Notes under the pieces: model-generated
Told to the model about the DNA's origin: nothing
The model's input: the letters and a program-made list of their open reading frames with translations, nothing else
Databases searched by the model: none
Shown here: positions 1 through 43,113 of the stretch, piece after piece
Position numbering within the stretch: position 1 is the stretch's first letter
Layout: every line of letters begins with the position of its first letter
Program-made: the position numbers and the translations under genes
From: Pseudomonas phage HX1
Direction: 5' to 3' (one strand)
DNA length: 43,113 nt
Sequence record: MW406976.1

Positions 1-560
1 ATCCTGGCGGGAGTGTCAACCCTGCGGTGGCGTGGCTGCCCATCGGCTCATACTCAGCGCCCTGCGGTGGGCTACCAGCGCCAGCCTACGGTCTTCCCTG
101 GCTCTGGCCCTGGCCGCTGGGTACGGGCTGTGCTGCTCATCCTCTGCTGCCCACCTGGCTAGCTTCCTCTGCCATGCTGCGTCGCGCTGGTGCCAGGCTC
201 GCTCGGCTCTGTCCTGTCTGCTCAGCATCCTCTGTGCCTCCTGGGGCCTCTGCCCTCTGGTCTGGTGGTGGTGCGGGAGTGGCTGGCCTTGCCTCTACGC
301 TACGCCTTGCCTCTTGTGCTGGCATTGCCTCCTGGCTCTACCTGGCGTTGCCTGGGTGGTCCTGGCTTTGCCTGGCCACTCCCTCTAGGCCACGTACTCT
401 ACTCGCCTCTACCTGCCTTGTCTAGTCCTGCTCCCTGTCGCTTCCCGGCTCTACCTGTCGCTCCCTGGGGGTGCTGGTCTACCTCCCTGGCTCTGCCTGG
501 GGCGCTGCGCTGGTCCTGCGGTCTTGCCTCGCCACTCCCTCGCCTGCTCGGTCGCACCTG
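1..560. repeat. A-depleted, C/T/G-rich non-coding region with short direct repeats (CTCTACCTG x4, GCCTTGCCTC x2, CCACTCCCTC x2, many CCTGGC); the same composition continues across the window junction at 42980-43113. Likely terminal-repeat/packaging region, present once in this window
   Basis: A is about 5% of the + strand; no ORF with coding-like codon bias; motif repeats spaced at roughly 30-70 bp. Confidence 0.5.
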
Positions 561-574
561 CGGCGCTGATGGAC

Positions 575-602
575 GCCTATTTGTCCATTGTGTGTGACAT
601 AA
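575..602 (-). promoter_or_regulatory. Inverted copy of the phage-promoter-like motif (minus strand reads TTATGTCACACACAATGGACAA), pointing leftward into the A-depleted end region
   Basis: 19 of 21 positions match the + strand copies at 21239, 21458 and 35737. Confidence 0.45.
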
Positions 603-776
603 CCGCAGCCTTAGTGCCACGCGGGTTTCAGGGTGGTGGTCCTGGCTGGGTGGCTGCTCCCTGGGTGGTGGATTTGCGTTACCTGGGAACGATAATCCTG
701 GCTAGCCAGACTAAGCCTCGCACGCGTGGGTCTCTATACGCGTGGGAAGGCTCCAGGGAGCGCCCTGGCGCGGGTA

Positions 777-805
777 TTGACACGTGGGTAGTAGGTCTGT
801 AGAGT
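777..805 (+). promoter_or_regulatory. Host sigma-70 early promoter P1 (TTGACA, 17-nt spacer, TAGAGT)
   Basis: Perfect -35 hexamer, 17-nt spacer, -10 matches consensus at 4 of 6 positions; GGG upstream of -35. Confidence 0.6.
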
Positions 806-856
806 TCGCCCTGTCTTCACGCAACAACGCCCCTACAGGCAGCCTGGAGACAGGGG

Positions 857-885
857 TTGACACCCTGCCAGGGCATCGGTAGGAT
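857..885 (+). promoter_or_regulatory. Host sigma-70 early promoter P2 (TTGACA, 17-nt spacer, TAGGAT)
   Basis: Perfect -35 hexamer, 17-nt spacer, good -10. Confidence 0.65.
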
Positions 886-1010
886 GCGCAGCCAGAACGA
901 CGGGAGATTGCAACCTTCCAAGCGCGGCACAAGCCATAGGCGCAAGGGACACGGCAAACTCTTAGGGCAGGAACCGCAGTGTGTAAGACCGGCAGGCATC
1001 ACTGAGGGGA

Positions 1011-1038
1011 TTGACAAGGTAGTAAGATGCGGTAAGAT
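1011..1038 (+). promoter_or_regulatory. Host sigma-70 early promoter P3 (TTGACA, 16-nt spacer, TAAGAT)
   Basis: Perfect -35 hexamer; -10 TAAGAT with a 16-nt spacer. Confidence 0.6.
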
Positions 1039-1112
1039 GTGCGGCGTCAAGTGGTCCCGATGTACACACTGTGAAGGGATTACGGCGCGGTCAGACAGAT
1101 GACCGGCACCGC

Positions 1113-1141
1113 TTGACACTGCAAGGCTCAGTCGGTACGAT
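1113..1141 (+). promoter_or_regulatory. Host sigma-70 early promoter P4 (TTGACA, 17-nt spacer, TACGAT)
   Basis: Perfect -35 hexamer, 17-nt spacer. Confidence 0.6.
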
Positions 1142-1261
1142 GGGCACCCATAGCGGACGTGATGGTCCGGGGCGATGCGGATAGGACGCCTTGTTTATAA
1201 CCTGACCGCAAAGCTGTGACTCCAGCCGATAGGACTGACCCACCACGTAAATACAGACGGG

Positions 1262-1290
1262 TTGACACGACAAGGCCAAGTCGCTAACAT
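1262..1290 (+). promoter_or_regulatory. Host sigma-70 early promoter P5 (TTGACA, 17-nt spacer, TAACAT)
   Basis: Perfect -35 hexamer, 17-nt spacer. Confidence 0.6.
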
Positions 1291-3119: not shown

Positions 3120-3141
3120 CTCAAGTCATGGCCCTGGCGGG

Positions 3142-21233: not shown

Positions 21234-21238
21234 GGGGA

Positions 21239-21262
21239 TTATGTCACCCACATAGGAGCAAG
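21239..21262 (+). promoter_or_regulatory. Phage-promoter-like motif TTATGTCACCCACATAGGAGCA
   Basis: One of four copies of TTATGTCAC-M-Y-ACA-NN-GGA; resembles the -17 to +6 region of T7-family promoters; 6 bp after the RNAP stop. Confidence 0.5.
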
Positions 21263-21426: not shown

Positions 21427-21678
21427 ATGGCTACTATGAAGACCCACCGACCTACGGTTATGTCACCCACAGTGGAAGGATCGAGAACAGGCAAGGGTAC
21501 GGCCCGTCCTGTCACGTTCACCTCTCAGCAGATCGAGTGGTTAGAGCAGACCTTCCCCGAACATCAGATCGGTCCTGGAACCACGATGGAAGACATCCAG
21601 TTCCAGGCCGGTAGGCGAGACGTGGTGCGAGCAGTACGCCTGCGCCGACGCGATGCCATCGCAGTGGAGTTGAAGTGA
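21427..21678 (+). CDS. Small protein, 83 aa, with RHH-like segment (RPVTFTSQQIEWLEQ); translationally coupled to the downstream GNAT
   Basis: AGGAG 9 nt upstream; GTGATG overlap with the next gene. Confidence 0.55.
   Translation: MATMKTHRPTVMSPTVEGSRTGKGTARPVTFTSQQIEWLEQTFPEHQIGPGTTMEDIQFQAGRRDVVRAVRLRRRDAIAVELK
21458..21481 (+). promoter_or_regulatory. Phage-promoter-like motif TTATGTCACCCACAGTGGAAGG (second tandem copy)
   Basis: First 14 nt identical to the copy at 21239; 21 of 24 identical to the copy at 35735. Confidence 0.5.
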
Positions 21679-35300: not shown

Positions 35301-36362
35301 GGCGTGTATCAGCTCGCCGAGCTGGCCACGATGGCGCACCGTCAAGGCGTCTTCAACGTCATGAAGGCCATGCTGAACTCCCGCCTGGGAGACTTCGTGG
35401 GCGCCATGCGTCGCGACCCGGACCTCGCTGACGAGATGCAGACCGTCCTCGGCCTGAACCTCGCCAACGATATCCGGATGAAGCCCTGGAAGCGGCAGTT
35501 CGACACCTTCCTGGCCAGCCAAGATACCTTCATGGATCGCTTCCTGCACGCAGGTAAGCAGGCTGTCCCAGTGCTCAACGGCATGAAGTTCATCCACAAC
35601 TGGCAATCCCGTATGAACGCCAACCTCACCTTGAACAAGGTGGCGCGGGCGGCTCAGGGGGACGAAGCAGCCCTTCGCGTGCTCCAGCAGTACGGGAAGG
35701 ATGTGGACTGGACGCCAGTCCTGGCGCGGGTTCGCGGTTATGTCACATACAGAGGAAGGAACGCCCAATCCATGAATTGGGGCGCCTGGAGCCAAGCAGA
35801 CGTGAACACCGTCATGAATACCGCACTGCGGATCATGGACGACTCACTGCTGTATGGTCGAGTCGGTCAGAACTCGGGCTTCGCCCGGTCGCCGGTCGGC
35901 CAAATCCTGGGCCAATTCCGCAGCTTCGTGGCCTTCGCGCACAACAAGCTCCTCCGGGGAACCTACGAGAACTCCGGCGTGCTTGGCGTGGCCTCGCTCC
36001 TCGCATTCCAGTATCCGCTCACAGCGCTGATGATGGGTGCCAAGGCAGCGATCAATGGCAAGTTCGACACCTCTGACGAAGGCATCCGCAAGATGGCCAT
36101 CGACGGCATCGGCTACACTGCCGGCCTGGGCTTCACCGCCGATATGTGGGGTGTGGTCACTGGCCACTCCCGAATGTCTGCTCCGGTCTTCGGACTGGCT
36201 GAACACTCCAACGAAGTGTTCCGAGGCGTTCGAGACCTCGTAACCGGCGACGACCCGGCAGCGGCCACTGGCGATATCGTCAACGGCGCGGCGGGCGCAC
36301 TGCCTTTCGTCAACGTGTTCCCGGCAACCAAGTTGCTGTTGGAATCCATCAAAGGGGAATAA
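32349..36362 (+). CDS. Internal virion / ejection protein C (T7 gp16-like), 1337 aa
   Basis: Size and order. Confidence 0.8.
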   Translation: MAKQFKGRMTPKYPLDQAQLDEAQVQGQLDTVPTVGFDALTGGEIGERNVAAGQRANARELERIVADQELPALDRASALWNQSTLVGRWGDALQLDADLAASSTGEVDPNFDAGTYGVQALQAAGIQPTDNYLQIMARAGNAEDAAYLLSRIQRYEQDEQIVRDNPYWNFAAGMLDPAALAVDAVTFGAGRALRLGRAGMAAAGGAGQVGYVAGLDAAGADVDAGTYIVAGALGAGVGALLGSGAGRIAAEAPTQPHVPEVSAPTVGLPEVAMTAEEAAARGFKAGDVVDLLDEGTVLSRVSAKVEQAEIPAIPRRDTAFGDELHSLSGRKLSEVLDHLKTHAEVPKPLQGIAAKVADTIRTLEGLGQRTAFRVVQGGDTASSAFLKPGTAGIHSTQGLDTLVQVRGSTAPGRVGTNPVTVLHEAVHAATVGVMNAALRNPGAMSPKVAQAMQTLENVRGNVLNALKQDRAAGRQLSEFEETLLAGNSNTLANVKELVAWGLTDTRFQRTLNRLRYSDGGPGLWSRFVEGIRTLLGLRSDADTALSRVLAASETIMEAMPGYTKAQAKWANKGAPVTEEASLETIVRTTRERAREGAGFVNRFFSEADLLAQPGEGARRLLSRLIDDPVRRDGFSTNDNAASYLRRYRNEFEGYVKSYDEMMAKAMAEQGVGLTARALNSRRAMAVRDQLNEQVTRELLRRDREWTAYGSVRVDPNLPPTIKALADRSDEIHGLMGQRAREAGVRGFEDFAPRPGYFHRSWNWSKMAQMDEAAPGLARRAISEAVFRGIPGLERADADTIAQAIVQRARDRATGIRSEFMGAMGVADTAFIRQALEEANVSQAKFDSIMAKIEQKQSDQGTVKYGKGRLSLDMTAEINHNGTVYRVQDLIDRDLDRLMENYAGSMSGRSALARAGMPGDSEIEAFIREYQREAAHLGTDKVQELTGQLRGVFGDFTGNVPREHQLGPVAQRASGLTSATMLGFSGVYQLAELATMAHRQGVFNVMKAMLNSRLGDFVGAMRRDPDLADEMQTVLGLNLANDIRMKPWKRQFDTFLASQDTFMDRFLHAGKQAVPVLNGMKFIHNWQSRMNANLTLNKVARAAQGDEAALRVLQQYGKDVDWTPVLARVRGYVTYRGRNAQSMNWGAWSQADVNTVMNTALRIMDDSLLYGRVGQNSGFARSPVGQILGQFRSFVAFAHNKLLRGTYENSGVLGVASLLAFQYPLTALMMGAKAAINGKFDTSDEGIRKMAIDGIGYTAGLGFTADMWGVVTGHSRMSAPVFGLAEHSNEVFRGVRDLVTGDDPAAATGDIVNGAAGALPFVNVFPATKLLLESIKGE
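35735..35759 (+). promoter_or_regulatory. Phage-promoter-like motif GGTTATGTCACATACAGAGGAAGGA inside the 3' end of the 1337-aa gene, ~600 bp upstream of the tail-fibre genes
   Basis: 21 of 24 identical to the copy at 21456-21479. Confidence 0.45.
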
Positions 36363-42259: not shown

Positions 42260-42574
42260 ATGGCGAACACCCGTGAGCAATACCTCGCTGGCCGTAACAC
42301 CGGCCTGACCTTCTACCAGGTCTGCCAGCCCGGCACCGACAACCGCATCGCCCTGCACGACATGGACGAGGCCGATGTCAAGGCCAAGGCCACCGCTGTG
42401 ATCGCAGCAGCCACCGCCCTGGGCGGCGAGGGTGGCGCTACTCCACCGGACCCGCTCACCGCCTACAAGGTGAAGAACGGTGACACCCTGCCCGTGGACG
42501 GCGGTGGTTCCGTGAAGGTGACCGTAGCCAACGGTGCTATCACCAAGGTCGTATACACCGCACCGGCGGGCTGA
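42260..42574 (+). CDS. Hypothetical protein, 104 aa
   Basis: AAGGAG RBS; codon bias. Confidence 0.65.
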   Translation: MANTREQYLAGRNTGLTFYQVCQPGTDNRIALHDMDEADVKAKATAVIAAATALGGEGGATPPDPLTAYKVKNGDTLPVDGGGSVKVTVANGAITKVVYTAPAG

Positions 42575-42834: not shown

Positions 42835-42858
42835 GAGCACCTGCACAGTCGGGTGCTC
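42835..42858 (+). terminator. Hairpin GAGCACC, loop, GGTGCTC after the last gene, followed ~15 nt later by the AT-rich patch GGAATTTTTATTTGTGTGTGG
   Basis: 7-bp stem; T-rich sequence downstream. Confidence 0.35.
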
Positions 42859-43113
42859 CACTGGAACTACTGGAATTTTTATTTGTGTGTGGCTGGATTG
42901 GCTGGGCCTGGGCTGGGAGTAGTTACTCCGGGTCCAATTTTGATATCGTCGTGTGAGAACCCTCCCGACTCTGATCAGCCCACCCTTCCCCCGTAGGCCC
43001 TCCGCCTGGTGGGCCATCCCTCGCGTTGCCTGGGTGTTGCTGCCTAGCCTCCTGGGAGCTTCCGGCTTCGCCGGGTGGCGTGGGCTTCCCTGCCCTCGCT
43101 GCCCATTCTACGC

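Follow-up and report, generated by a model that had tools for sequence, protein, structure and literature searches.

All known promoters of bacteriophage T7 point rightward. Among them, phiOL, a secondary origin, lies between the terminal repeat and the host early promoters, and its transcription crosses the repeat; like phiOR, it is separated from the terminal repeat by a few hundred bp that include arrays of short repeats. In T7, the concatemer junction also contains, close to its right end, a class II pause signal, at which pausing is reportedly needed for maturation. In Klebsiella phage KP34, the strong phage-polymerase promoter S2 (475-490) is likewise end-proximal, the distance to the 216-bp terminal repeat being approximately 260 bp. 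It is on the plus strand, points rightward, and was shown to be active in vitro (Lu et al. 2019, PMC6834552).

The closest described system is that of LUZ19, whose primary 5' ends were mapped by ONT-cappable-seq (Putzeys et al. 2024, microLife, PMC10914365). Four LUZ19 promoters shared a common GgtTATGTCACacACAnnGG. Two of them follow the polymerase gene, a third is in the structural region, and the fourth, P001, is reversed in orientation. P001 starts at 732(-) and gives rise to TU001 (731->141, 3' end T001) and TU002 (731->457, 3' end T002); a further minus-strand 3' end, T018, was located at 43099, and the most distant 3' end of the leftward reads was at 42269 on the 'other side' (PMC10914365, supplement). 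The antisense transcripts from P001 reach the right genome end over gp47-49, TU001 was listed as gene-free, and the minus-strand 20-mer GGTTATGTCACACACAATGG was present in 15 of the 16 Phikmvvirus species screened, LUZ19 itself being one base off (PMC10914365, Table S6). The authors proposed that P001 prevents late transcription from entering the early genes when the DNA is circularised. A 2013 LUZ19 study had worked without strand information and found no promoter motif, and our search of the later literature returned nothing on P001 function.

The window analysed here is the whole stretch of 43,113 nt in the record of Pseudomonas phage HX1 (MW406976.1). The leftward promoter that an initial annotation of this window reported is already known, namely as LUZ19 P001 (Putzeys et al. 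2024), and as such it only confirms P001 in another Phikmvvirus genome. Relative to that study, which contains neither the open reading frame (ORF) described below, nor the A-poor tract, nor copies in other genera, the new elements are a leftward promoter predicted across genera, the coincidence of the tract with the transcribed interval, and a probable small gene in the repeat. These additions could matter to users of LUZ19 or phiKMV as model or therapeutic phages, as a gene hidden in a terminal repeat would be dropped or doubled when genome ends are handled in the customary way, and it is missing from most annotations.

Genome ends and the leftward motif

The first 3 kb of the window showed 89-96% identity to 97 Pseudomonas phage records of the genus Phikmvvirus. 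In tblastn searches, the RNA polymerase was 100% identical to that of vB_PaeP_PZH3, at least 95% identical across Phikmvvirus, and less than 60% identical to everything else. The window corresponds to a Phikmvvirus genome with a circular permutation of 154 nt and contains a single copy of the terminal repeat. The direct terminal repeat of LUZ19 is exact and 472 bp long; LUZ19 position 1, the physical left end, aligned to window position 42960, positions 177/178 aligned to 43113/1 (which are accordingly contiguous within the repeat), and the right repeat border at 472 aligned to 285. The left-end sequences of nine relatives also begin at the equivalent of 42960. The initial annotation had considered that the window might be permuted or reverse-complemented. 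Alignment to LUZ19, in whose collinear record all annotated genes are on the plus strand, bore out a permutation across the genome end and no inversion; thus, the motif still points left, away from the genes, as had been claimed (Table 1).

Table 1. Features of the HX1 window and motif copies in related phages
Genome	Feature	Position	Strand	Basis or remark
HX1	Terminal repeat, first part, and start of A-depleted tract	42960..43113		homology to LUZ19; left end ~42960
HX1	Invariant 20-bp element near left end, CCACCCTTCCCCCGTAGGCC	42980..42999		invariant in 10-genome alignment
HX1	Terminal repeat, second part	1..285		border 285 (LUZ19, phiKMV homology) or 369 if PT2-like
HX1	Small ORF, 70 aa + stop, MLSRQDRAERAWHQRDAAWQRK...	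16..228	-	ORF list; tblastn; PHROG
HX1	U-poor leader, ~357 nt, poorly conserved	229..584	-	many indels not multiples of 3
HX1	Near-invariant 20-bp element across LUZ19-type right repeat border	274..293		0.98 in 10-genome alignment
HX1	Conserved 80-bp island containing the promoter	556..635		column identity 0.94-0.99 in 10 genomes
HX1	Predicted promoter for phage single-subunit RNA polymerase, LUZ19 P001 homologue, GGTTATGTCACACACAATGG	585..604	-	motif; Table S6 identity; alignment
HX1	Rightward sigma-70-type early promoters, five	777..1290	+	scan: 6 sites vs 0.2 expected
HX1	Cognate single-subunit RNA polymerase gene, 815 aa	18786..21233	+	ORF list; tblastn
HX1	Predicted promoter copy directly after RNA polymerase stop codon, LUZ19 P007 homologue	21237..21257	+	motif
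HX1	Second predicted promoter copy near RNA polymerase gene, LUZ19 P008 homologue	21456..21476	+	motif
HX1	Predicted promoter copy within 1337-aa internal virion protein gene, LUZ19 P009 homologue	35736..35756	+	motif
LKA1	Motif copies	17845, 21823, 31507 (+); 478 (-)	both	minus copy identical over 22 nt to copy 17845
phi-2	Motif copies	21278, 25272, 34935 (+); eight (-)	both	minus copies one per 105-bp tandem repeat at record end
phiNV3	Motif copies	four (+); 1047 (-)	both	
MR5	Motif copies	three (+); 66 (-)	both	
RSB3	Motif copies	after polymerase gene and 35828 (+); ~520 (-)	both	

On the minus strand, positions 604-585 read GGTTATGTCACACACAATGG, the full published 20-mer. The promoter-like motif had originally been placed at 602-575; the minus strand at 602-576 is exactly TTATGTCACACACAATGGACAAATAGG, and the left limit was one base too far, as this string is 27 nt long. 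The pattern TTATGTCACNNACANNGGA had four exact matches in the window, at 584-602 (-), 21239 (+), 21458 (+), and 35738 (+), where 0.02 were expected by chance and no shuffle reached four. [quoted passage not shown] An agreement of 19/21 positions had been attributed to the polymerase-proximal copies in general; it holds for the copy at 21456-21476, whereas the copies at 21237 and 35736 matched the leftward copy at only 17/21 and at 18/21, respectively.

The predicted start site on the minus strand is G585 or G586, the LUZ19 start at 732(-) being aligned to 585. Position 585 is 739 nt from the mapped left end, and the promoter would lie approximately 300 bp to the right of the LUZ19-type repeat border, between the repeat and the early promoters, the first of which is at 777. 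The latter are homologues of LUZ19 P002-P005 and are divergent from the leftward promoter. The site contains GgtTATGTCACacACAnnGG, has the strand and distance of P001, and is accompanied by a cognate polymerase and three plus-strand copies, by which it would belong to the P001 class. LUZ19 P001 shares with it the motif, the strand, the place (~700-760 nt from the left end, upstream of the early promoters), and the accompanying set of three further copies, two behind the polymerase gene and one within the gene for the internal virion protein. Nothing material differs between the two, the start having been measured in LUZ19 and predicted by homology here. From this likeness, we infer that the leftward promoter is active in HX1.

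In an alignment of 10 genomes that covered the region between the physical left end and the first early promoter, the stretch at 556-635 was the best conserved of the left end, its flanks having identities of 0.3-0.7 and many indels. This 80-bp island was present in 93 phage records, with an identity of at least 99% in 52, 95-99% in 34, and 90-95% in 7, and no promoter was annotated in it among the 25 records listed. An exact-motif scan of IMG/VR matched only seven known reference phages.

The two 20-bp elements in Table 1 are located near the repeat borders. When transferred to the window, the LUZ19 3' end T018 falls at approximately 42982, the distal edge of the element at 42980-42999, and T002 falls at approximately 270, the distal edge of the element at 274-293. 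The element at 42980-42999 is G-quadruplex-like on the minus strand (GGGCCTACGGGGGAAGGGTGGG). The annotated repeat copies of PT2 are 488 and 482 bp long, with several indels between them, and its right repeat border corresponds to window position 369, compared with 285 for LUZ19; this reflects either repeats of variable length in the genus or sequencing errors at the ends of PT2. A GC-rich hairpin (GAGCACC...GGTGCTC) is present at 42838-42885, downstream of the last late gene. It is not a canonical terminator, because the T run begins approximately 20 nt further on, and the terminator scan made no call there.

The A-poor tract and the small reading frame within it

The A-depleted terminal region that the initial annotation had pointed out was confirmed. 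The tract consisting of 42960..43113 and 1..585 contains 6.6% A, compared with 20.9% genome-wide. This is the genome minimum; 500-nt windows had a mean of 0.209, with an sd of 0.028 and a minimum of 0.056. The limits of the tract coincide exactly with the physical left end and the start site, an observation that is new here. The interval from the left end to the start site contained 6.4-8.0% A in all 10 Phikmvvirus genomes despite sequence turnover, which indicates that its composition is constrained independently of its sequence. From 585 to the left end, there is no gene on the plus strand; overlap with the gp47-49 homologues would occur only past the junction, as in LUZ19. The antisense transcription across the end and junction that had been anticipated for the window has a direct precedent, since LUZ19 transcripts from the homologous base reach 42269, antisense to gp47-49.

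As the template region is A-poor, the RNA is predicted to be U-poor, with 26% A, 29% C, 38% G, and 6.6% U. It would be 64% purine, with no U run longer than two and 23 G runs of at least three, the non-template strand being G-rich. No intrinsic (hairpin + U) terminators were found on the path of the minus-strand transcript, and an Rfam scan of both strands of 1-1800 gave no match (best E 0.54). In the leader at 229..584, pN/pS was 0.67-1.28 in all six frames, and gap runs were 1, 2, 8, 11, 20, 23... nt long.

Further along this path, an ORF at 228->16 begins with ATG, has AGGAGG 8 nt upstream, and encodes a product that starts with MLSRQDR in each of the 10 genomes as well as in additional records. 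Conservation extends to AGGAG and the start codon, and tblastn found the ORF in 93 records. Open frames are expected in a T-poor strand, where a 70-codon open frame has a chance of approximately 0.3 per frame; the length of the ORF alone is therefore no evidence, and the conservation of the frames was tested instead. In nucleotide-only alignments of three clades, pN/pS in the ORF's own frame was 0.22, 0.38, and 0.39, compared with 0.8-2.1 in the other sense frames and 0.26, 0.57, and 0.65 in the antisense (plus) frame that shares its third codon positions. Variable columns were distributed over the codon positions as 35:23:52, the usual coding order (chi-square p = 0.003), and indels within the ORF were multiples of three only (3, 12, and 3 nt). 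In the flanking leader and trailer of the same genomes, by contrast, pN/pS was 0.61-1.28 in every frame, and indels were not multiples of three. Between clades, amino-acid identity was highest in the ORF's own frame (0.50 vs 0.37-0.45). Six divergent versions have the C-terminal motif [YW]R.xR[LVI]AxHxxA[LM]xx[SA]R in common, and for one conserved Ser-Arg pair, some versions use AGC-CGA and others TCC-AGG.

The plus-strand ORF at 32-388 was rejected as the coding frame: its pN/pS was higher in all three clades, the order of codon-position variability fits the minus frame, and the Ser/Arg switches are synonymous only in the latter. An origin of the A-poor tract as a by-product of coding was likewise rejected, as the ORF at 228->16 covers only 213 of the 739 nt.

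The predicted protein has a mass of 8.2 kDa and a pI of 11.6, and 13 of the 18 T's of the ORF fall in codons for hydrophobic residues. AlphaFold2 predicted a helical hairpin (helices 4-33 and 37-65, pLDDT 81.8), with the indels located at the turn. The ORF matched the phrog_31366 profile with an E of 2.9e-39 over residues 1-70 of 70, and four divergent versions matched it with E values from 3e-38 to 2e-8. In the sources consulted, this family, which includes the RLP gp32 'hypothetical protein', has neither an assigned function nor a link to P001. A Pfam search gave no match, Foldseek against the PDB gave none with an E below 3, and in protein libraries of 5.8 billion and 1.8 billion entries only Phikmvvirus proteins matched. 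The ORF itself was annotated by gene callers, on the opposite strand, in RLP, L5, PA69, QSZH, MYY9, and PJNP013. In phage 5401, an in-frame deletion shortens the ORF to 44 aa, and in the unverified record Pa-B it is without a start codon; thus, the small protein may be dispensable.

The LUZ19 copy of the ORF (413->192) is spanned by TU001, which ends 51 nt past the stop codon, and T002 precedes the ATG of this copy by 44 nt. Because the frame evolves in a coding-type manner, we regard the ORF with fair confidence as a real gene. The long U-poor, purine-rich RNA envisaged in the initial annotation fits the predicted composition, although its description as non-coding is doubtful, and the P001 transcript is probably not purely non-coding.

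Other elements were observed within the tract. Five CCTGG pentamers are spaced at exactly 10 bp (331, 341, 351, 361, and 371; window 331-375). The pentamer occurs 16 times in the 739 nt, corresponding to 21.7/kb, compared with 4.3/kb elsewhere and a Markov-1 expectation of 5.8. The array could be a phased protein-binding array or bent DNA, and the A-poor tract of LKA1 is likewise full of CCCTGG. A sigma-70-like candidate promoter, TAGACA-17 nt-TAGAGT, is located at 396-424 (-), facing leftward approximately 170 nt upstream of the small ORF. The two hexamers are unchanged across 10 genomes, in contrast to the spacer, whose sequence varies; the LUZ19 data report no start site at this element.

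Leftward copies in other genera

For phages outside the genus, the motif that follows each phage's own polymerase gene was searched for on both strands. Leftward copies were found in LKA1, phi-2, phiNV3, MR5, and RSB3, in each case in the non-coding terminal region (Table 1). The polymerases of these phages are only ~38-45% identical to one another and their promoter motifs differ, which indicates that the leftward copy was kept while promoter specificity changed. These putative promoters in five other genera are new here.

In LKA1, the leftward copy at 458-478 is AGAATTGTCGCACTAGCATGA, the motif that follows its own polymerase gene, and the 'phage-specific promoters' annotated in the record have a different motif. 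The tract at 1-474 of LKA1 contains 7.6% A, compared with 20.8%, and ends exactly at the leftward copy. The bias is milder in phiNV3 and phi-2 and weak in MR5. At 42376-43118 of phi-2, each annotated 105-bp unit carries a leftward TCTAATGTCACATATATAGGA, eight in a row.

KP34 S2 is comparable in being an end-proximal promoter of the phage polymerase with a related core, TNATGTYACA (PMC6834552), and differs in its rightward orientation; the region near S2 is only mildly A-poor (15.8% vs 24.4%). The T7 promoters phiOL and phiOR also point rightward, as the T7 genes do, whereas in the window the motif occupies the minus strand, opposite to the plus-strand genes. Given the same place and the opposite direction, P001 is an inverted positional counterpart of phiOL and KP34 S2.

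The small ORF had no significant homologue in LKA1, phiNV3, MR5, phi-2, RSB3, or KP34 when six-frame translations were searched with its profile. In phiNV3, a 61-aa ORF on the minus strand, ~376 nt downstream of the motif at 1047, begins with MLSKHDRAAQAY and has P-Y at 35-36; it resembles the small ORF in start, length, turn, and position. This ORF (MLSKHDRA...) is the best positional candidate, but its profile E among all frames was 2.2, which is not significant. A general rule that the leftward promoter always drives the small gene was rejected, as the candidate ORF in MR5/MR7/MR16 has many second-position changes and LKA1 is without an ATG-started ORF at that place. The lack of a detected homologue in the outgroups suggests that the leftward promoter is older than the small gene and that the gene is not its sole purpose; if so, transcribing the genome end is probably functional in itself. 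The retention of the leftward promoter across genera, while its sequence changed with the polymerase, points to the same conclusion, and concatemer processing in these phages thereby becomes a testable question.

Possible functions of leftward transcription

In the explanation that we propose, the motif would be a genus-wide leftward late promoter, corresponding to P001 of LUZ19, at which the single-subunit RNA polymerase encoded by the phage starts at 585/586 (-) and transcribes away from all annotated genes. The U-poor RNA would be unable to form hairpin-plus-U terminators; it would pass the 357-nt leader, enter the terminal repeat, and cover the 70-codon ORF for the small, very basic helical-hairpin protein. 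Part of the RNA would end ~50 nt after the ORF stop codon, near window position 43080, and on concatemeric DNA part of the transcription would cross the genome junction, antisense to the last late genes. The promoter would then define a late unit for an overlooked small gene in the repeat and also put the phage polymerase onto the concatemer junction, a reading that we favour on balance; that the ORF is translated, and that transcription across the junction has a role, are inferences. We are evenly divided on a broader version, in which P001 drives a late gene in the terminal repeat that has gone unrecognised, is oriented opposite to all other genes, and encodes a basic helical hairpin of 63-73 aa (phrog_31366), and in which the leftward promoter is ancestral to at least six phiKMV-like genera, an inverted phiOL/S2 counterpart whose U-poor transcript acts at the concatemer junction.

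The initial annotation suggested roles in replication priming, concatemer resolution, or packaging, which would be a reasonable analogy to T7. A tentative alternative, which can coexist with the small gene, is that the junction transcription itself serves DNA maturation and the RNA is irrelevant. The polymerase would be driven leftward through the concatemer repeat, pause at the repeat borders, and help the terminase to find or open the junction, by analogy a mirror image of T7 phiOR and its pause. The distribution of the promoter is in line with this possibility: leftward copies occur in at least six genera with diverged promoters and polymerases, including the eight tandem copies of phi-2, whereas the ORF is limited to one genus. 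So is the extent of the A-poor tract, which in LKA1, as in 10 Phikmvvirus genomes, spans exactly the interval between the left end and the start site. T002 and T018 lie 15 and 22 nt inside the repeat borders, edging the two conserved 20-bp elements, as might be expected of pausing there; however, the reference contains the repeat twice, so that 3' ends within it may be artefacts of mapping, and the repeat border of PT2 is elsewhere (369). [quoted passage not shown] KP34, moreover, manages with a rightward end-proximal promoter.

The insulator role proposed by Putzeys et al. appears unlikely to be the main explanation. Leftward late transcription would collide with rightward read-through across the junction of circular or concatemeric DNA and thereby shield the early genes, which accords with the location of the promoter, past the last late genes and before the early promoters, with the failure to find a canonical terminator after the last late gene or in the repeat, and with the LUZ19 reads extending into gp47-49. 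It leaves unexplained the A-poor composition, the conserved ORF, and the 3' ends at the repeat borders, and the harm that would come from late re-expression of the early genes is not obvious. Furthermore, T7-type polymerases can reportedly pass each other head-on.

An improbable alternative by analogy with the promoter-dependent origins of T7, of which phiOL is matched by the promoter in position, is that the purine-rich RNA, hybridised to its template, primes DNA synthesis or exposes a repeat strand for end-to-end annealing. The abundance of G and A over U, the G runs, and the G-rich non-template strand would favour such R-loops. Nevertheless, the promoter has no AT-rich unwinding region beside it (603-775 is 65% G+C), the GC skew is modest, and the A-poor bias is weak in phiNV3, phi-2, and MR5 even though the promoter is kept there. 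Finally, a chance or relic copy of the motif without activity is highly implausible in view of the 0.02 matches expected, the island kept in 93 records, the start site mapped in LUZ19, and the equivalent leftward copies in five other genera.

None of the four mapped promoters is annotated in the LUZ19 RefSeq record. The 'phage-specific promoter sequence' features that it does contain (3130, 6753, 14413, and 24765) carry the CCTACTCCGG motif, which the 2013 LUZ19 paper reported at 3132, 6755, 14415, and 24767 and attributed to single-strand nicks.
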